From the sequence record OQ850288: a stretch of 64,000 nucleotides of DNA; one strand, written 5' to 3'. Below are positions 10,418 through 31,915 of this stretch, in pieces. Below the pieces are notes generated by a model. It was not told the origin of the DNA and did no database searches. It saw only the letters and a program-made list of their open reading frames with translations. Position numbers and translations under genes: made by a program. This stretch comes from Escherichia phage vB_EcoM_ULIM9. The number at the start of each line of letters is the position of its first letter. Within the stretch, counting starts at the first letter, position 1.

Positions 10418-10674
10418 GTAAGCCTCTTTTAAGTAACTATTAAGTTTTAATCTTTTATCTTAACGTATTCTATACGTTATACTTTAAAGCTTTTTAAAAG
10501 CTATTAAATAATCTTTTAAGAGTTTTAAAGTATCTGTATAGTTAAACTGTTAAGTAACCTTTTAAGTAAAAACCCACTTCGCAAAGATTAACACCTTGTC
10601 AAGTACATTGTCAACTTGCTTTTTATAATTTTTTGCAGTAATGTATGAGGTTAATGATTTTAGAGGGAGTAAAA

Positions 10675-13374
10675 ATGGAAAACGTAGATTTTAAGAACTT
10701 ACATTTAGTTGGTGATACAGAAACTGATGGTTTACTCCTTGAGTTCACTAAAGTTCACGTAATGGCTTTTGCAGACTATAAATCTGACGATGAAGAGCCA
10801 CCTGTATGGGTCTTCACAGATGAGCCTATCCTCGGTCACAAGTACACTAAGTACATTAAGGGTGGTTTACGTGAAGGTGTTGAGTTTGCGTTAAAGGCAA
10901 AACGACTTTGTATCCATAATGGTCTCGGTTATGACTGGTGGGTTTTCAATCACATTGCACCGGATTTATGGAACTTTGATAATCCAAAATGTAAGCCGTG
11001 GAGTAATTTCTTTCAGGACTCTCTTATCCAGTCTCGTGTTCAGTGGATGGATAGACCAACTCCAAAGGGTTATAAAGGTGCTCATGGTTTGGCTGCATGG
11101 GGTGCTCGTGTTGGTGTTCGTAAGCCAGAGATTGAGCATTGGGGTGTGTGGAATGCAGAAATCTTCACTCGTGTTGTAGAAGATATTCGTATTAACGCCA
11201 AAACTAAACGGGCACTTGATAATGAGTATCTCAAGCTTAAGAAGTGTGGCATAGACACTTATGAAACCTACATGCGAGCTAAAGAAACATCTTTCTGGAT
11301 GAGTCAACAAGCTATCAATGGCTGGAAAGCTGATAAAGAGCTTATGGAGTTCCATGTAAAGGAACTTGACAAGTTGACTAATGAGCTTGCTTCAGAGGTT
11401 GAACCACATCTACCACCAACTATTAAGACCAAAGGTAAAGTCACTGGAGAAGAGTTTGCAAAAGCTTGGAATGAGTATGTTGAAACATTTGGTCATGCAG
11501 ATGGACTGAAAAGAATTACCAAGTACCCTAAGACAAAGTATCGTCAGCAGGTACGTAATGGTGAGATGCAGACATATGAAATCAAGCCATTTGGTAAGCC
11601 AACTACAAAGATTTTTAACATTGAAAAGAGAAATTGCTATACACCAACCAACTCTGTAACTGGTGAAGAGTACAAGGAAGGCTTTGTAGCAATGAAGGAT
11701 GCTCGTGCAATTTGCAATGAGTTGAATGCAAAGATTGGTAAGAAATGCAAAGACTGGAAGCCAGTAAAAACAGTCAAAACTGTGAAGTACTATAACAGCC
11801 ACGTTGTTAACCACTTTGAGCTTGAGTCAAGTCGCTACACAGGTTTGATTGATGCACCATATACACCAATTGAGTTTGAAGTTTCTCGTATGACTCAGGT
11901 AGCAGTTGTTAAAGACTACTTGAAATCAGTTGGTTGGATTCCAGATGACTGGAACTACAAGAAAGACTCAGACGGTCGCCCTATCAAAGTTTGTCGTTTC
12001 AAAGACAATAAAAAGATGATTACAAAACATCCTAAGTGGCAGGAAATGGTTGAGCGGTGCGGTTTGAGCTATGTTGAGCATGAAGGTGTACAGTACATTG
12101 AGCATAACTGGTCTGTTAAGAAGTACACAGACTTACTTGAACCTTGTCTGATTAGGACTTCACCAAAACTTACTGAATCATCTTATGATACGATTGAAGG
12201 TGAGCTTGGACAGAAGATTGCTAAGTACTATACTTTGATGCACCGACGCAGAACTATTGAGAACTCAAAGGATGATGAAAAAGGTTGGTTGAACCAGATT
12301 CGTCCTGATGGTCGCCTTAGTGCTGGTGCAATGGTGTTTGGTACTTCAACTGGACGTATGACACAATATGGTATTGTAAACGTACCGTCTGGTGCTGCTG
12401 TCTATGGAGCACCTATGAGGGCAGTGTGGATTTGTGAAGAGGGGACTAACATTGTTTCTGTTGACCAGAACTCAGCCCAGCTAGTTCTTCTTTGTAACTT
12501 TATGGGTGATGAAGACTTCACTAAAGCGGTAACTGAGGGTAAAGAGTCAGTAGAATTTACCAAGCAAGAAGATGGGAGATATTATTGCAAACATCTTGAT
12601 AAGTACCTTAATCCAGAAACTGATAAGTATCTTCGTTATGATGCTGAGAATGACCTCTATGAAGTCTACACAGGTACTGATGCACATACACTGAATAGTA
12701 TTTACTTTGGTCTGAACAAGGAAGAAGACATTGTTCGTTGTAGGGAGACACAGGATGAGGAACTTCTCCACGAGATTACAAAAGGTCGTAAGAAGAGCAA
12801 AAATGGCATCTACGCCCTGTTATTTGGAGCCGGAGACGAGAAGTTTGCAAAAACTATCAAGGCATCATCTACGGAAGAAGGTGCATTGACTAAACAAACT
12901 TACTATATGCGTCTGCCAAAGATTAAGAAGTTGCTTGATAGCTTAGAAGCCGATTTTAAGGCGTCTAAAAAGGCTCTGGAAGAGGTTTTTGGGAAGAATT
13001 CTTCAATTGCTAAAGGTGGTTATATCAGGGTCGCTGGAGCATGGATATGGTGCAAATCTCCACATAAACTACTGAACTACCTCCTGATGAGTTCGGAAGC
13101 ACAGATTCAGAATGAGGCCATCAACCTAGCAGCAAGAAAAGCCTGTGAAGATGGCCTGACAAAACTGAATGCTCGAAAACCAGCTATCGGAGCAAGGTTA
13201 CTTCTGGCATATCACGATGAAAATAGTTGGGAATGCCCAGAGGGTATGACACATGATATGAAAGCAATTGCTGACTGGATGTATGGACAAGCTTCAAAAA
13301 ACTTAGGTTTGAGGAAAGAAACACTTGTAACTGGTACAGCAAAGGTTGGTAAGAGCTGGTTGGAGGTACATTGA
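10675..13374 (+). CDS. DNA polymerase, family A (Pol I-like) with 3'-5' exonuclease domain
   Basis: ORF track frame 10645-13374; start moved to ATG 10675 (MENVDFKNL), which follows an AGGGAG Shine-Dalgarno; DTETDG exonuclease motif near N-terminus; about 900 aa. Confidence 0.85.
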   Translation: MENVDFKNLHLVGDTETDGLLLEFTKVHVMAFADYKSDDEEPPVWVFTDEPILGHKYTKYIKGGLREGVEFALKAKRLCIHNGLGYDWWVFNHIAPDLWNFDNPKCKPWSNFFQDSLIQSRVQWMDRPTPKGYKGAHGLAAWGARVGVRKPEIEHWGVWNAEIFTRVVEDIRINAKTKRALDNEYLKLKKCGIDTYETYMRAKETSFWMSQQAINGWKADKELMEFHVKELDKLTNELASEVEPHLPPTIKTKGKVTGEEFAKAWNEYVETFGHADGLKRITKYPKTKYRQQVRNGEMQTYEIKPFGKPTTKIFNIEKRNCYTPTNSVTGEEYKEGFVAMKDARAICNELNAKIGKKCKDWKPVKTVKTVKYYNSHVVNHFELESSRYTGLIDAPYTPIEFEVSRMTQVAVVKDYLKSVGWIPDDWNYKKDSDGRPIKVCRFKDNKKMITKHPKWQEMVERCGLSYVEHEGVQYIEHNWSVKKYTDLLEPCLIRTSPKLTESSYDTIEGELGQKIAKYYTLMHRRRTIENSKDDEKGWLNQIRPDGRLSAGAMVFGTSTGRMTQYGIVNVPSGAAVYGAPMRAVWICEEGTNIVSVDQNSAQLVLLCNFMGDEDFTKAVTEGKESVEFTKQEDGRYYCKHLDKYLNPETDKYLRYDAENDLYEVYTGTDAHTLNSIYFGLNKEEDIVRCRETQDEELLHEITKGRKKSKNGIYALLFGAGDEKFAKTIKASSTEEGALTKQTYYMRLPKIKKLLDSLEADFKASKKALEEVFGKNSSIAKGGYIRVAGAWIWCKSPHKLLNYLLMSSEAQIQNEAINLAARKACEDGLTKLNARKPAIGARLLLAYHDENSWECPEGMTHDMKAIADWMYGQASKNLGLRKETLVTGTAKVGKSWLEVH

Positions 13375-14603: not shown

Positions 14604-14791
14604 ACAAAGAAGACAAGCATAAAAATGCTGTACGAACTCCTGATGGGAAGATTCAATCATTCACCCTGACAGTTGGTGGAAAGCCATTCCGTTGCCACTG
14701 CGGAGCAAACTGCTTTCATAAACCAGATAAAAATGACTTAGAGCTTTACGCATGTAATGCTTGCAATACTTGGTATCATTCAGAGGAATAA
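14600..14791 (+). CDS. small zinc-ribbon protein (63 aa)
   Basis: CHCGANC...CNACNTW four-Cys arrangement. Confidence 0.4.
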   Translation: MNKEDKHKNAVRTPDGKIQSFTLTVGGKPFRCHCGANCFHKPDKNDLELYACNACNTWYHSEE

Positions 14792-14792
14792 A

Positions 14793-15896
14793 ATGACAAC
14801 ACTGTACAAACAAAATAAAGATGGTTCCTTCAACGTCTGGTCATGTGTTGCTGTAGGTGATAAAGTTATTACAACCTATGGTAAAGAAAATGGCAAGATG
14901 ATGTTTGAAGAGTATACAGCAGAACCGAAAAACATCGGTAAAAAGAATGAGCGTAACGCTGAACAGCAAGCTCTCTTTGAAGTTGCTGCTAAGTATAAAA
15001 AGCAAGTTGACCGCAAAGGTTATGCTTACACAAAAGAATCTGCACAGAATACTGAGAAGGTAGGTGTACAGCTTGCTCATGATGCTGCAAAGGTTAGTCA
15101 TGCAAAGTATCTGAAGTTCCCTGCTGATACTCAACCAAAACTTGATGGTGTTCGTTGTAGAATTTCAAGACACTTAAGTATTGGCAGTGTATTTACAGCA
15201 TATTCTCGTGAGAACACTATTTATAAAATTCCTACTGAGCTAATACCTGACATTATGGCAATGTTAAGGCTCCATAAAGACGTTGATGAATTTGATGGTG
15301 AAATCTATGCTCATGGGTTGGACTTAGAAGATATTGTCTCCATGATTAAAAATGAAGACAATCCTGACCGACACCTACTCAAGTTTTACTGGTATGATAT
15401 CTGTGACAGTACTAAGACGTGGCCTGAGCGTAGAGATATTATTGAGACTTCACCATTGAATGACTTTAGAGACGGCTGTAAAGTTGTTCCTGTTAAGTCT
15501 CGTCGTGTAAATTCTTGGGAAGAGTTTGATGAAGCTCATGATAAGTGGGTTGAAGCTAAGTTTGAAGGTGCAATGTACCGTTCAATCTCTGAAGACTCCT
15601 TCTATGAGTGTTGTCACCGTTCATACTTCTTGATTAAACACAAGAAGATGCACACTGAAGAGTTTAAAGTGACTGGTGTCAAGACCGATAAACGTGGTCA
15701 TGGCAAGTTCGTTGTAGAGACGCTTCCTAACGTCTTTGTAGATGTTTCATGGAAAACTACCCATGAGAAGAAGCAGTATCTTGCTGAGCATCCTGAAGAG
15801 TTTATCGGGAAACCTTTAACGGTACAGTTTCAGAAGATGACTCGTAAGGGGTCTTTACAGTTCCCTGTTGGTCTCGTTATTCGAGACTACGAATAA
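14793..15896 (+). CDS. ATP-dependent DNA ligase
   Basis: Start moved from 14757 to ATG 14793 (MTTLYKQ) preceded by GAGG; adenylation motif KLDGVRC, plus FDGEIY, EGAMYR and LIKHKK motifs in ligase order. Confidence 0.8.
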   Translation: MTTLYKQNKDGSFNVWSCVAVGDKVITTYGKENGKMMFEEYTAEPKNIGKKNERNAEQQALFEVAAKYKKQVDRKGYAYTKESAQNTEKVGVQLAHDAAKVSHAKYLKFPADTQPKLDGVRCRISRHLSIGSVFTAYSRENTIYKIPTELIPDIMAMLRLHKDVDEFDGEIYAHGLDLEDIVSMIKNEDNPDRHLLKFYWYDICDSTKTWPERRDIIETSPLNDFRDGCKVVPVKSRRVNSWEEFDEAHDKWVEAKFEGAMYRSISEDSFYECCHRSYFLIKHKKMHTEEFKVTGVKTDKRGHGKFVVETLPNVFVDVSWKTTHEKKQYLAEHPEEFIGKPLTVQFQKMTRKGSLQFPVGLVIRDYE

Positions 15897-15903
15897 AAAG
15901 TTG

Positions 15904-15931
15904 TTGACATAGAAAATTTGGTGAGTATACT
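15904..15931 (+). promoter_or_regulatory. sigma70-like promoter (TTGACA-16 nt-TATACT)
   Basis: TTGACA at 15904-15909, 16-nt spacer, TATACT at 15926-15931, directly after the ligase stop. Confidence 0.45.
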
Positions 15932-16111
15932 GAGCAGCATAAACCAACGGGTACTCACCAGCATCACTTAAGAGTCTTTTAAAAGGGTTTTTAAGTGATG
16001 TTTGGTTCGGTATGGTCTAGTAGGCTCTGGTTTGGCAGGGTTTGGTGTGGTTTGGTATGGAAGGATGGCAGTAGCCTTATAAAAAATCTGCCAAATAAGC
16101 TATAAAATCTG

Positions 16112-16140
16112 TTGACAAGTCAGGTGTTATAGCTTATTTT
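16112..16140 (+). promoter_or_regulatory. sigma70-like promoter (TTGACA-17 nt-TATTTT)
   Basis: TTGACA 16112-16117, 17-nt spacer, TATTTT 16135-16140, about 45 nt upstream of ATG 16185. Confidence 0.4.
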
Positions 16141-16184
16141 TATACCCAATGTAATACAAAATTTAATATAACTTTGAGGTCATT

Positions 16185-16568
16185 ATGAAAAAGGTTTTAT
16201 TAGCTGCTGCAATGGTTATGGCAATGAACTTACCAGTCAATGCAACAGAACTTCCAAATGTGGACTTATCAGGTGTTCCAGAAGATACTTGCCAGATTGT
16301 AAAAGGTGTTGCGCTATCTAAAGGTGAGTTACTTAAACCAATCTCTGAAGAGTCTTTAACAGAGATGACTGATAAGGTGACTGACTACCAGTATCGTGTT
16401 CTTGCAGAGTATTTCCTGCAATCTGCAAATATTAAAGAGAAACACCATGATGATATTGATGTACAGGTTATGCTCAATCATCGTATCCAGTTTAAAGAAG
16501 ATTTGATGCAAAAAGCTATGTATGGTGTTGAGTATTTCTTAGAAAACAGAAGCTGCACAGGTATTTGA
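16185..16568 (+). CDS. secreted/periplasmic protein with N-terminal signal peptide
   Basis: 127 aa; MKKVLLAAAMVMAMNLPVNA followed by polar mature region. Confidence 0.5.
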   Translation: MKKVLLAAAMVMAMNLPVNATELPNVDLSGVPEDTCQIVKGVALSKGELLKPISEESLTEMTDKVTDYQYRVLAEYFLQSANIKEKHHDDIDVQVMLNHRIQFKEDLMQKAMYGVEYFLENRSCTGI

Positions 16569-16569
16569 T

Positions 16570-16782
16570 ATGGCTCTTAAAAAGTTACATCCCAGAAGCG
16601 GTTATGGTAAGATAATTGACGATACAGACGGCTTTACAGTCTTTACAGTTATCTGCCAAGATGATTCACAGATTGAAAAGGCTCTTGACGATTATCTTAA
16701 CGATGAACGTGAAAAGGTTCGGGCTACAAACATAGATTCATTGATTGACACTTCACGCAAACGGAAGAAGAAAGATGAATGA
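16570..16782 (+). CDS. hypothetical protein (70 aa)
   Basis: ORF track. Confidence 0.4.
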   Translation: MALKKLHPRSGYGKIIDDTDGFTVFTVICQDDSQIEKALDDYLNDEREKVRATNIDSLIDTSRKRKKKDE

Positions 16783-17074
16783 GGTTTTTGACCCTTATGC
16801 CCCACAAGATGATTGGGAGGCTGATAGAGAGGCTGAAATGGAGAGTTATATTTGTCCAATGGATGTAGACGAAATGAGAGACTTCGTTTCACATCGTTTT
16901 AAGAGAGAGATTAAATCCAGAGGTCTTTCTCAAGAACAAGTTGCTAAAATTTGTGGTATCTCTCAGGCTCGTGTATCCAACATAATCCACCTCACTGGGA
17001 ATGTTTCCCTTGAGTATATGTTGGAAGTATGTGAAAAATTTGGTGTTAGTTTTAATTTAAGGTTGGCAGATTAA
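16775..17074 (+). CDS. putative helix-turn-helix DNA-binding regulator
   Basis: ORF track frame 16745-17074; start moved to internal ATG 16775 (MNEVFDPY); LSQEQVAKICGISQARVSNI resembles an XRE/Cro-type HTH. Confidence 0.4.
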   Translation: MNEVFDPYAPQDDWEADREAEMESYICPMDVDEMRDFVSHRFKREIKSRGLSQEQVAKICGISQARVSNIIHLTGNVSLEYMLEVCEKFGVSFNLRLAD

Positions 17075-17075
17075 T

Positions 17076-17435
17076 ATGAAACGTGAAAACATTATCCACT
17101 CTGAAAACTTCGCATTAGGCTTTTATGGCGTACCCACTCACCTTGAAAAGTATTATGGTGTGAAGATTCTCTCCAATCTCATTATGGCTTACAAAGATGG
17201 TAAGATTAAGCATACCGAGAAGAAACGTGTCATGGGTTATATGGCTGTAGGTTCAGCAATCTCGAACATTAAGCTGGAAACAACTAGCAGTCAGGTTGTG
17301 AAAGACCACTTCATCAAAGAGCTTTACCAGAATCTTGATGGTGTAGATGTTCAGGCTGTTTGGCTGGATGTTGATGGTCATAACTACACAAGTTTCGTTT
17401 TCAAAAACGATGACATTAAGTGTTTGTTCCCATAA
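17076..17435 (+). CDS. hypothetical protein (119 aa)
   Basis: ORF track. Confidence 0.45.
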   Translation: MKRENIIHSENFALGFYGVPTHLEKYYGVKILSNLIMAYKDGKIKHTEKKRVMGYMAVGSAISNIKLETTSSQVVKDHFIKELYQNLDGVDVQAVWLDVDGHNYTSFVFKNDDIKCLFP

Positions 17436-17448
17436 TAGGTGATTAACT

Positions 17449-17964
17449 ATGATTGATATCTACTTACAAGATGCTCATGCAGATTTCCTTAAAGAGATGC
17501 TTAAAAAGTTTATGGCTTCACAGTATGAGAATGAAGCATCTTTTAAAATAGTTACATGTGGCGACGAAGCTGGTTTTGTTGAGATTGAACATGAAGGTAC
17601 TGGAAAGACTGTTTGTAAGTTACCTGATAGTATGTTCTCTAAAACGTTCTTAACAAAGACTAGTATAAATGTTAAGCTTGTACCGCAGATTGAAACATAC
17701 TCTGGTACAGATTACCCTAAAGGTTTTAAGTCACTAATGAAGTACTTCTTAGATGACTTTGTGAGTAATCTTCTGAGGGAGGTAAAAGAAAGTCGTACAG
17801 TGTTAACTGTAGAGAACATGGGAGGAACTATCAAGGTCACTTCTGACTGTTTTGTTATGAGCCTCTTCGACTTCGTTCCTAAGAACTTTGATGGTATTCT
17901 GGATGAAGAAGATGACTGTGTAGATTTTATATTGGTTCTTGAGCCAGTTTTTGAGGTTAAATAG
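17449..17964 (+). CDS. hypothetical protein (171 aa)
   Basis: ORF track. Confidence 0.45.
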   Translation: MIDIYLQDAHADFLKEMLKKFMASQYENEASFKIVTCGDEAGFVEIEHEGTGKTVCKLPDSMFSKTFLTKTSINVKLVPQIETYSGTDYPKGFKSLMKYFLDDFVSNLLREVKESRTVLTVENMGGTIKVTSDCFVMSLFDFVPKNFDGILDEEDDCVDFILVLEPVFEVK

Positions 17965-18225
17965 ATGAAAATTGAACACTGCTATGAGTCTGATGGAACA
18001 CCTATCCGATGTCCACATTGTGGGTGTACAGACTTACAAGGCGAGGTAAGTGAAATAGTCAACGGTCATATTGCTGAAGAGAGTACAAGGTGTACAGGAT
18101 GTAATGAAATCATTGCTTTCTGGGCTTATGGTTCATACCAGCCTACACCACACTTAATCTACCATAGCAATAAAGCTGTGAAGAGTGTTATCAACTGGTT
18201 CATTAAGAAAGGATTTACAAAATGA
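17965..18225 (+). CDS. small zinc-ribbon protein (86 aa)
   Basis: CPHCGC...CTGCNE four-Cys motif. Confidence 0.4.
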   Translation: MKIEHCYESDGTPIRCPHCGCTDLQGEVSEIVNGHIAEESTRCTGCNEIIAFWAYGSYQPTPHLIYHSNKAVKSVINWFIKKGFTK

Positions 18226-18767
18226 TTAAATTAATCTTTGCAAGTGGTGAAAATGGGGAGTTTGGTACTCCAACTGGTATGCCGTGGCCTCGACATAAAC
18301 AGGATATGCAAGAGTTTAAGAGACTCACTAAAGATAACTTAGTAGTAATGGGTAATGAGACTTTTAAGACTCTGGGTAGCAAACCATTACCAGAACGTAC
18401 AAACCTCGTCTTAACGAACTCTGTTCCATATTTGGGTATAGACTTTGACAAAGATGATGTAATGTATGCTAAGGCCAGTAAAGAGTCCTTTGGAGCATTT
18501 TTGAAATATCTTGATAGCTCTATTGATGAAGATGTCTTTGTAATTGGTGGTGCAGGTGTTCTTGTCAATGCTTTGCCGTATGCTGGTGTAGTTTTCCATA
18601 CAGTTTTCCATAAAGTTACTGAAGAGGCCACTGTGTATTTACCTTTTGAAAACTTCTTCGATAAACTGTATGATAGCCGTGTATTTGCAAAGGTGCAGTC
18701 AAGACCCTCAGATGATGGTAAAGCAACCTTTGAGATTTATGTTCCACAAGTAAAAGGACACTTTTGA
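18222..18767 (+). CDS. folA: dihydrofolate reductase
   Basis: 181 aa; N-terminal MIKLIFASGENGEFGTPTGMPW and VMGNETFKTLG...PLPERTNLVLT match the DHFR fold signature. Confidence 0.75.
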   Translation: MIKLIFASGENGEFGTPTGMPWPRHKQDMQEFKRLTKDNLVVMGNETFKTLGSKPLPERTNLVLTNSVPYLGIDFDKDDVMYAKASKESFGAFLKYLDSSIDEDVFVIGGAGVLVNALPYAGVVFHTVFHKVTEEATVYLPFENFFDKLYDSRVFAKVQSRPSDDGKATFEIYVPQVKGHF

Positions 18768-18768
18768 T

Positions 18769-19668
18769 ATGTCACAAGCAGATTCAAGTTATAAAAATAT
18801 CCTGAACCATGTTTTATCAGTTGGTGAACTGCGTACTACACGAACTGGAGATGTTATCTCTGCATTTGCTCCACCTAAGTTTCGTTTTGATATGCGAACT
18901 GGTTTTCCACTCTTAACATCTAAACAGGTGTTTACAAGGCAAGTTATTGGGGAAGCTTTATGGTTCCTGAATGGTGAGAATAAACTTGGTGAACTTCGTT
19001 ACCGCACTTGGGGTGAAAATGATGGAGAACGCTGGACTATCTGGTCAGATGATTTTAAACGCTGGTTAAGCTCTAACTATTCTTCTGAGCAAGACTGGTT
19101 AGAAGATGCAGGTGGGAGAATCTACGGGGTTCAGTGGAGAAACTTTGAAGGTCATAATGGTTGTGTTGTAGACCAGTTAGAAACCTTAGTAACGAAGATG
19201 AAGGGTGATATCACAGACCGCTACATGCTTGTTAATGCTTGGAATGCAGCAGATATTGCAGCTAACTCTATGGCTTTAGCACCTTGCCATGTACTGTTTC
19301 AGATTTATATCACTAACGAAGGTGAAGTTGACTTACAATGGTATCAACGTTCTGTAGACACCTTTTTAGGACTTCCGTTTAACATTGCATCTTATGGTTT
19401 TATTCTGGAAGTTCTTTGCAAGATGACTGGATACACTCCACGGTACTTGATAGGTGTCTTTGGAGATACTCAGATTTATCAGAACCATATGAAGCAGGTT
19501 TATGAACTGATGAACAATGAAGAGTTCCATGCACCTACTTTTGAGATTGGTGTGCAGCTTAACACCCTAAGTGATTTAAAACACCTTACTGCAAGTGATT
19601 TTATTGGCGGCATTAACAACTACCAACATGCAGGGAAGATTGAAGCACCTCTGTCAGTAGGTAAGTAA
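18769..19668 (+). CDS. thyA: thymidylate synthase
   Basis: 299 aa; catalytic-site block PCHVLFQIY...YQRSVDTFLGLPFNIASYGF is the classical ThyA signature. Confidence 0.85.
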   Translation: MSQADSSYKNILNHVLSVGELRTTRTGDVISAFAPPKFRFDMRTGFPLLTSKQVFTRQVIGEALWFLNGENKLGELRYRTWGENDGERWTIWSDDFKRWLSSNYSSEQDWLEDAGGRIYGVQWRNFEGHNGCVVDQLETLVTKMKGDITDRYMLVNAWNAADIAANSMALAPCHVLFQIYITNEGEVDLQWYQRSVDTFLGLPFNIASYGFILEVLCKMTGYTPRYLIGVFGDTQIYQNHMKQVYELMNNEEFHAPTFEIGVQLNTLSDLKHLTASDFIGGINNYQHAGKIEAPLSVGK

Positions 19669-19671
19669 AAC

Positions 19672-19712
19672 AAAAAAGGCTCCCGTAAAAAGGAGCCTTA
19701 AACTTTATTTTT
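19672..19712. terminator. bidirectional intrinsic terminator between convergent genes
   Basis: Hairpin GGCTCC-cgtaaaaa-GGAGCC flanked by A-run upstream and T-run downstream; lies between thyA (+) and the minus-strand gene ending at 19705. Confidence 0.6.
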
Positions 19713-20076
19713 CAGTATTCTTTGTGTTCTTTTCAGTAATAGCTTGGAGGGCTGATACTGATTGAGCCAGATTGTTCACACTGTCAGAGAATTTATCAAG
19801 AGTTTTGGTAAGTTTTGCGTTTTCACCCTTAACATTCTCTAACTGAACTTTCTGGTTCTCCATCCCTAGCTGAATCAGTCTCATGTCAGACTGTAAATCA
19901 CGAATAGCTGAATAGTTACTTTTGGAATAATTATCTAGCTGCTGTAACTTTGTTGTGACAGACACTTCTTGCTTACCACTTGAAACTTGCATAGTGGTAT
20001 ACATCCCAATAACACTAAAAATACCAACTACAATTGCACCAATATTATTTTTAAAAGCTTCCTCTAGCCACTTCAT
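19705..20076 (-). CDS. membrane-anchored coiled-coil protein (possible i-spanin-like or fiber-assembly protein)
   Basis: 123 aa; one N-terminal transmembrane helix (GAIVVGIFSVIGMYTTM) then heptad-rich domain. Confidence 0.3.
   Translation of the reverse strand: MKWLEEAFKNNIGAIVVGIFSVIGMYTTMQVSSGKQEVSVTTKLQQLDNYSKSNYSAIRDLQSDMRLIQLGMENQKVQLENVKGENAKLTKTLDKFSDSVNNLAQSVSALQAITEKNTKNTEK

Positions 20077-23920: not shown

Positions 23921-31915
<7,995 letters not shown>

Follow-up and report, generated by a model that had tools for sequence, protein, structure and literature searches.

A predicted periplasmic protein encoded among the replication genes of Felix O1-like phages

The current study describes a small protein of Felix O1-like phages that is predicted to act in the periplasm, where its role is most likely conditional, rather than part of the core infection cycle, and where its conserved head most likely binds a partner. 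Felix O1-like phages are widely used in Salmonella typing, biocontrol, and therapy cocktails, even though most of their genes have no known function. The gene in question is encoded on the plus strand of Escherichia phage vB_EcoM_ULIM9 (sequence record OQ850288), and all coordinates below refer to the window, i.e. the whole 64,000-nucleotide stretch of this DNA that was analyzed. The family itself was already known from PHROGs and the gene is annotated as hypothetical in hundreds of genomes. What is new is the recognition of a conserved export signal and cysteine pair, a confident predicted fold, and a link to published expression and fitness data, as well as the rank of the gene as the fastest-diverging one shared with phage Moogle and the non-homology of its product to the T4 proteins Spackle and RI. 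Judged from its sequence, the protein appears to belong among the small periplasmic accessory proteins of virulent phages, and there is nothing surprising about it as yet.

Gene, operon, and expression

The open reading frame at 16185-16568 (+) encodes 127 amino acids from an ATG start codon, which is preceded at a distance of 5 nt by the Shine-Dalgarno sequence GAGG (16176-16179, +), a feature that is kept in the multi-genus alignment. Its product matches the phrog_4332 profile over the full length (E 9.3e-66, residues 1-127 versus profile positions 1-126 of 126) and does not differ from Bas63 gp37 at any residue. Orthologues could be identified in 258 phage records, among them Felix O1 ORF87 (Felix01p159; 127 aa, pI 4.8) and SUSP1 AVU07_agp037. 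The dN/dS ratio in close pairs is 0.07-0.12, which indicates that the gene is protein-coding and under purifying selection. In addition, the 4 kb surrounding the gene are matched by approximately 200 Felix O1-like myoviruses (Felixounavirus) at 90-96% nucleotide identity, with Salmonella phage Si3 as the best match. It is evident that the frame is a real gene of a Felixounavirus genome. The 127-aa frame had first been proposed in a sequence-only reading of this DNA and is confirmed exactly as given there.

That reading had also placed the gene amid replication genes, which its surroundings bear out. The DNA polymerase gene (10645-13374, +) lies in the same rightward block and is followed by small open reading frames, while the immediate upstream neighbor is an ATP-dependent DNA ligase gene (14757-15896, +). 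The gene opens a tightly packed operon, the remainder of which (16570-19668, +) begins with a 70-aa protein, whose start codon is located 1 nt past the stop codon of the studied gene, and continues with an HTH regulator, proteins of 119 and 171 aa, a Lar-like protein of 86 aa, DHFR, and thymidylate synthase. This order is common to Moogle, CHB7, ESh22, Sf13, 3HA14, and the metagenomic contig L009.

Two further members of the operon exhibit features of their own. The 171-aa protein (17449-17964, +; phrog_4422) is second to the studied protein as the least conserved product of the operon, at 32-41% in every genome compared. Its residues 90-151 yield weak matches to Csa5/Cas11a, the small Cascade subunit (Pfam E 0.11, PADLOC E 0.011), which may be due to chance. 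The 86-aa CxxC protein (17965-18225, +) has sub-threshold matches to the ECs_2282 and Lar restriction-alleviation families, and its Bas63 orthologue, gene 32, has been reported to be less essential in DH10B versus the other three hosts.

Upstream of the gene, two sigma-70-like sites could be located, in agreement with the promoters anticipated by the sequence-only reading. The distal promoter-like site (15904-15931, +; TTGACA-N16-TATACT, 11/12) is found immediately past the ligase stop codon, whereas the proximal operon promoter (16112-16140, +; TTGACA-N17-TATTTT, 10/12) has its -35 sequence at 16112-16117 and its -10 sequence at 16135-16140. A promoter scan by itself is weak proof, because the number of sigma-70-like sites in the region is not above the shuffled expectation. 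The proximal -35 TTGACA is, however, unchanged in all 9 loci compared, which represent at least three genera (Felixounavirus, Mooglevirus, and Suspvirus, plus one metagenomic relative), while its surroundings have diverged. Among Moogle-type and Susp-type phages, the proximal site takes the form TTGACA-N16-TATACT, and the annotation of ASO1B includes a promoter at the matching position. The orthologues of CHB7, Sf13, and ESh22 are each immediately preceded by a promoter of the form seen at the distal site.

ASO1B, SUSP1, and Moogle each encode two additional genes (about 196 and 146 aa) between the ligase and the orthologue. Relative to ASO1B, the ligase-to-gene spacer of the window (15897-16110) is a deletion scar, and the distal site probably once drove the two genes lost in this lineage. 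When compared with ASO1B, the two flanks of the deletion share ~55 nt, an overlap that points to a repeat bordering the indel. A strong hairpin is predicted at ~15957-16003 (-52 kcal/mol for the whole region, z = -3.5), and Rfam has no match in positions 15600-16700 of the window. Between the proximal -10 sequence and the Shine-Dalgarno sequence, positions 16141-16175 read ATACAAAATTTAATATA, most of which is invariant across genera. This segment is an imperfect inverted repeat centered on AAATTT and could be a candidate operator for the HTH regulator encoded by the third gene of the operon, which would imply autoregulation.

Published data on relatives provide some insight into when the gene is expressed and how far it is needed. 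RT-PCR of Felix O1 detected the ORF87 transcript with a maximum at 25 min, and the same 25-min class includes the ligase (88), polymerase (96), and thymidylate synthase (80) genes (PMC3185647). ORF87 was not among the virion proteins of Felix O1 determined by mass spectrometry (PMC3185647). The "early/replication" label of the sequence-only reading can therefore be retained only in part: the gene does belong to the replication class, since its transcript peaks together with those of the ligase and polymerase, but a maximum at 25 min makes it a middle or replication-phase gene rather than an immediate-early one. In the PhageMaP study of Bas63, knock-outs of gene 37 scored -0.41, 0.08, and -0.08 in one host and 0.08, -0.08, and -0.09 in another, as compared with values in the same hosts of mostly -0.3 to -4.5 for structural genes and mostly +0.3 to +1.5 for clearly neutral genes. 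Likewise, CRISPRi-ART in SUSP1 classified the orthologue as "Not Fit" (fitness -0.76, p 0.87). Since the gene is dispensable in both the Bas63 knock-outs and the SUSP1 knock-down, it can be regarded as accessory under laboratory conditions, and due to this dispensability mutants should be easy to make.

Predicted export and fold

Sec-dependent export of the protein to the periplasm, with signal peptidase I cleavage after Ala20, is predicted with high confidence. The putative signal peptide comprises residues 1-20 (MKKVLLAAAMVMAMNLPVNA; 16185-16244, +) and is followed directly by TELPNV. Its n-region carries two lysines and a charge of +2, its uncharged h-region spans 13 residues (10-residue Kyte-Doolittle mean 2.7), and V-N-A occupies positions -3 to -1 of the predicted cleavage site, with a residue other than Pro at +1, as is appropriate for signal peptidase I. 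The window protein has neither a Cys at +1 nor a twin-arginine motif, and no later hydrophobic segment was found in it (maximum 19-residue hydropathy 0.6). A crude heuristic scan of every open reading frame in the 64 kb identified this as the sole full-length gene with an N-terminus of this kind.

The same architecture is found throughout the family. Among 33 sequences, M1, K2, K3, and A20 are invariant and the net n-region charge is +2, while the h-region has a length of 11-13 residues and a 10-residue hydropathy of 2.2-2.9 in all relatives. The -3/-1 positions conform to V/A/T-x-A in 33/33 (VNA, AAA, AVA, ASA, TSA, VKA, or AYA). Mooglevirus, Suspvirus, and metagenomic relatives are only 30-41% identical and have altered h-cores (LLVGIIALGMSF, IALCLFAALSF, and LLVAALIFASF, for example), yet the architecture is constant. 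Its maintenance across 33 relatives despite such drift is far beyond chance. Thus, the cleavable signal peptide proposed in the sequence-only reading holds up well, with Sec-type n- and h-regions and a -3/-1 site that are all conserved among these relatives.

As export is a matter of prediction, one could also envision that the N-terminus is an uncleaved anchor or is simply unused, and that the protein acts at the inner membrane or in the cytoplasm instead of as a soluble periplasmic protein. This is very improbable. At 11-13 residues, the h-region is too short to serve as a membrane anchor, the Ala at -1 is invariant, the residue at -3 is small in every case, and the whole pattern is kept while the sequence drifts. 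Furthermore, a conserved cysteine pair such as the one described below is typical of exported proteins.

Several other classes of envelope protein were considered and rejected. The lipoprotein, Tat-signal, and membrane-anchor readings are ruled out by the lack of a lipobox, the lack of twin arginines, and the short h-region, respectively. The lipobox pattern [LVI][ASTVI][GAS]C is absent in all 33 relatives, none of which has a Cys directly after the h-region or a second membrane segment; the Cys7 of some Moogle-type sequences is preceded by A-L, but sits within the h-region. A spanin can similarly be dismissed, given the compact predicted bundle, the lack of an embedded or adjacent lipobox reading frame, and the annotation of the spanins of this phage group elsewhere in the genome. 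A weak match to the N-terminus of the fimbrial subunit StaA (residues 1-45, E 0.0028) involves the signal peptide only. The orthologue from Shigella phage vB_SflM_004 is chimeric, as it joins a Felix O1-type signal peptide (MKKILLASAMVMAMNLPVKA) to a Moogle-type mature part (MKMPEANF...). The two parts meet at the predicted cleavage site, so that the Felix O1 and Moogle types seem to have recombined.

The predicted mature protein (16245-16565, +) consists of 107 residues, with a mass of 12.3 kDa, a pI of 4.7, and a net charge of -8, and every mature orthologue is likewise acidic (pI 4.4-5.2). AlphaFold2, provided with an alignment of 33 sequences, returned a three-helix bundle with a pLDDT of 94.9 and a pTM of 0.85. 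The helices of the model occupy mature residues 11-25, 35-67, and 73-101, and the last 7 residues are also modeled with a pLDDT of 95. Two cysteines are invariant in the 33 sequences: Cys36 (codon 16290-16292, +) in helix 1 and Cys124 (codon 16554-16556, +) in the C-terminal tail, within the sequence R-x-C-x-G. Based upon this invariant pair, a Cys36-Cys124 disulfide would probably form in the oxidizing environment of the periplasm.

Sequence conservation is unevenly distributed along the protein. The most conserved motif of the family is the loop between helices 1 and 2, G47-E48-L49-L50-K51-P52 (16323-16340, +), which is kept as G47-E48-L49-x-K51-P52. Other invariant or near-invariant residues include D63, D67, Y70, and Y76 in the first half of helix 2, D90, and G114 and F118 late in helix 3, in addition to the conserved tail R122-x-C124-x-G126. 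In an up-down-up bundle with a short first helix, all of these with the sole exception of D90 would come to lie in one half of the molecule, whereas the lower hairpin of helices 2 and 3 is variable and accommodates an indel. We infer that the conserved half constitutes a functional "head" in which the C-terminal tail would be stapled to helix 1. Within it, the GEL-KP loop, together with D63, D67, and Y70 of helix 2, is a candidate binding site. The fold itself gives no functional clue, because three-helix bundles are generic.

Distribution, divergence, and possible roles

When examining its distribution, the family phrog_4332 appears to be restricted to virulent Ounavirinae. A full scan of 1.84 billion representative proteins returned 5 clusters and a profile search of 5.8 billion proteins returned 32 proteins, all of which belong to this family. 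IMG/VR contains 30 loci, every one of them on a contig of 51-94 kb, while no member of the family turned up in 185,579 bacterial and archaeal genomes. Even the most distant member is still syntenic with a 63-70-aa gene, an HTH regulator gene, and a ~120-aa gene. Every record of the family is listed as a hypothetical protein without an assigned function. Searches for related proteins of known function or structure were similarly unrevealing: Pfam, NCBIfam, and PADLOC scans gave nothing meaningful (Smoothelin, E 0.12), a profile search of PDB sequences gave no matches under E 0.3, and a fold search of BFVD returned solely the Sf13 orthologue of the protein. No kinship in fold with any solved structure emerged either.

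The protein is the least conserved of all those encoded by open reading frames shared with phage Moogle, with 33% identity. In the replication block, the corresponding values are 86% for the ligase, 89% for the polymerase, 68% for the HTH regulator, and 67% for DHFR, while other proteins are 80% (tape measure), 94% (hub), 86% (spike), 89% (sheath), and 91% (holin-like) identical. Tail-tip proteins are conserved at 78-94% where the studied protein is at 33%. Such strong divergence would suit a protein located at a conflict or host interface.

The tail spike protein of the window (26971-27594, -) matches the Pfam entry PF18352, printed as "xxxxx_N / Phage protein xxxxx N-terminal domain", which looks like a masked or placeholder name and not biology. 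Hafnia phage Zyzzx, a distant member of the Ounavirinae that lacks a phrog_4332-type gene, encodes between its DNA polymerase and ligase genes a 162-aa protein, ZYZZX_13 (L045 6621-7109, -), with the canonical signal peptide MKKLALAIGLTMALTGSAMA. Its homology to the family is undemonstrable (probability 7.7%) and it has no PHROG match, although there is a faint motif likeness (Y-R...Y...N-x-D-V-L). As Zyzzx has a different signal-peptide protein in the same gene cluster, the presence of an exported accessory protein in the replication cluster is seemingly recurrent.

Several roles can be considered for a protein with these properties. One is that the acidic bundle neutralizes a host periplasmic protein as an envelope modulator or counter-defense factor, and thereby keeps the envelope favorable for the phage. 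Candidates would include the DegP protease, endonuclease I, a Tol-Pal or Lpt component, an envelope-stress sensor, or a defense acting in the periplasm. The predicted export, the acidity, and the conserved surface patch would all be expected of such a protein, as would its conditional dispensability and rapid divergence, and periplasm-acting anti-phage defenses exist (PMC13128918). On the other hand, genera with very different versions of the protein both infect E. coli, so host differences fail to explain the divergence, and the main text of a Bas63 screen with 12 defense systems does not mention gene 37 among the defense counters or triggers. On balance, we consider this role unlikely.

Alternatively, the protein could regulate the timing of lysis by binding the periplasmic domain of the holin-like protein, a spanin, or the endolysin, and thus delay or tune lysis in the manner of T4 RI with holin T. 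T4 RI is likewise small, helical, and periplasmic, and laboratory growth does not depend on it, and the dispensability of the studied gene would be compatible with a similar role. A potential partner is at hand in the 123-aa holin-like protein (19705-20076, -), which is annotated as a holin in related records and whose gene closes the same block. A single membrane segment at its N-terminus leads into a coiled coil of ~90 residues, which would be exposed to the periplasm. However, the holin-like protein is 90-92% identical between genera versus 30-34% for the studied protein, which argues against a tightly co-evolving pair, and no case of lysis inhibition among these phages was found in the literature. 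Membership in the RI family can be rejected, as the hhalign probability is 0.2% and the protein has a short cleavable signal peptide instead of the long signal-anchor-release domain of RI. A lysis-timing role is accordingly quite unlikely. The holin-like protein is itself unlike small multi-span holins, its coiled coil has a weak DivIC match, and in Bas63 its loss carries a fitness cost on MG1655 (about -1.5).

The role that we favor, albeit tentatively and by analogy, is that of exclusion. During the replication phase, host RNA polymerase would use the conserved TTGACA promoter to transcribe the gene. The precursor would leave the cytoplasm by the Sec route, signal peptidase I would remove the signal peptide behind Ala20, and the mature 107-residue acidic protein would fold into a three-helix bundle. 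Taken together, these predicted steps are highly probable. The Cys36-Cys124 disulfide would then pin the C-terminal tail to the head, near the GEL-KP loop and the D63/D67/Y70 face, and the acidic head would bind a protein partner in the cell envelope. As a result, the infected cell might be shielded from secondary or competing phages at the stage of penetration or DNA entry. Possible targets are an incoming tail component or a host factor of the periplasm or inner membrane on which DNA entry relies; the target must be something other than lysozyme, because Felix O1-like virions carry no tail lysozyme. The protein would thus be a functional analogue, but not a homologue, of T4 Spackle.

A number of features fit this explanation without proving exclusion, namely the signal-peptide architecture, the cysteine pair, the confident all-helical model, the acidity, the conserved promoter, the transcript peak shared with the ligase and polymerase together with the absence of ORF87 from the virion, the dispensability, the divergence, the narrow range among virulent phages, the Spackle-like outline of the protein, and the different signal-peptide protein of Zyzzx. 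Others count against exclusion. Transcription peaks at 25 min and not immediately after infection, and the case for superinfection exclusion is weakened both by the lack of a tail lysozyme in the virions and by the conservation of the tail-tip proteins. Co-evolution with a tail-tip target of its own kind is not evident, because the tape measure, hub, and spike are far better conserved. The protein resembles neither Spackle nor other known exclusion proteins in sequence or fold, and literature searches revealed neither a report of superinfection exclusion by Felix O1-like phages nor a functional study of the gene.

A more ambitious version of the exclusion model, which we regard as somewhat unlikely, holds that the proteins form a new family of periplasmic exclusion or competition effectors that are structurally unrelated to Spackle, are made by contractile-tailed phages lacking a tail lysozyme, and block penetration or DNA entry via a target new to exclusion systems. 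This could be the emerging tape-measure/tail-tube channel or a host factor that DNA requires to cross the periplasm, and the inter-genus divergence would then be the product of competition among co-occurring Ounavirinae.

The practical consequences depend upon which of these roles applies. If the protein excludes or handicaps other phages, it would affect interference among the components of phage cocktails, and true exclusion would mean that infection includes a step in the periplasm which can be blocked even where no lysozyme serves as the target. If the protein is instead a tuner of lysis or a disarmer of the host envelope, it would constitute a compact and easily expressed tool, as it has only 107 residues and is predicted to form a stable helical bundle.

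Comparison with known phage envelope proteins

Three groups of phage proteins lend themselves to comparison. The first includes T5 Llp and the Cor-type proteins, which are likewise exported phage proteins of the envelope that counter secondary infection. Unlike the studied protein, which has no lipobox, these are lipoproteins that block an outer-membrane protein receptor. Receptor masking of this type, which the sequence-only reading had offered as one option for an exported phage protein, requires a lipoprotein and can be set aside. The receptor of Felix O1-like phages is LPS (PMC12609058).

The second is T4 RI, which is similarly a small helical protein that ends up in the periplasm (predicted here for the Felix O1-like protein) and is non-essential. 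The two cases are dissimilar in that the putative holin partner is conserved while the studied protein diverges.

The third and closest parallel in outline is T4 Spackle (Sp, gp61.3), which inhibits the tail lysozyme gp5 in the periplasm and has a part in superinfection exclusion. Sp is made as a 97-residue precursor (MKKFIF...) with a 22-residue signal peptide, and the mature 75-residue protein is acidic and helical with a Cys29-Cys81 disulfide; its gene is located between those of the primase and helicase. The studied protein resembles it in its MKK start, its predicted cleavable signal peptide, its small, acidic, and helical mature part, and its placement of one cysteine near each end, and it too is encoded among the replication genes of a virulent myovirus. 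Nevertheless, membership in the Spackle family was rejected, as there is no relation in sequence or fold: hhalign gave a probability of 16.6% with the signal peptide alone aligned, and Sp structures were not found among the fold matches of the protein. The Spackle-type target is missing as well, because no peptidoglycan-hydrolase domain was found in the tape measure, tube initiator, hub, spike, or wedge proteins of the window, and in the cryo-EM study of the Bas63 virion the hub comprises the tape measure, tube initiator, hub, and puncture proteins, with no lysozyme described. Since the protein is homologous to neither Sp nor RI, its likeness to either would be at most a functional one.
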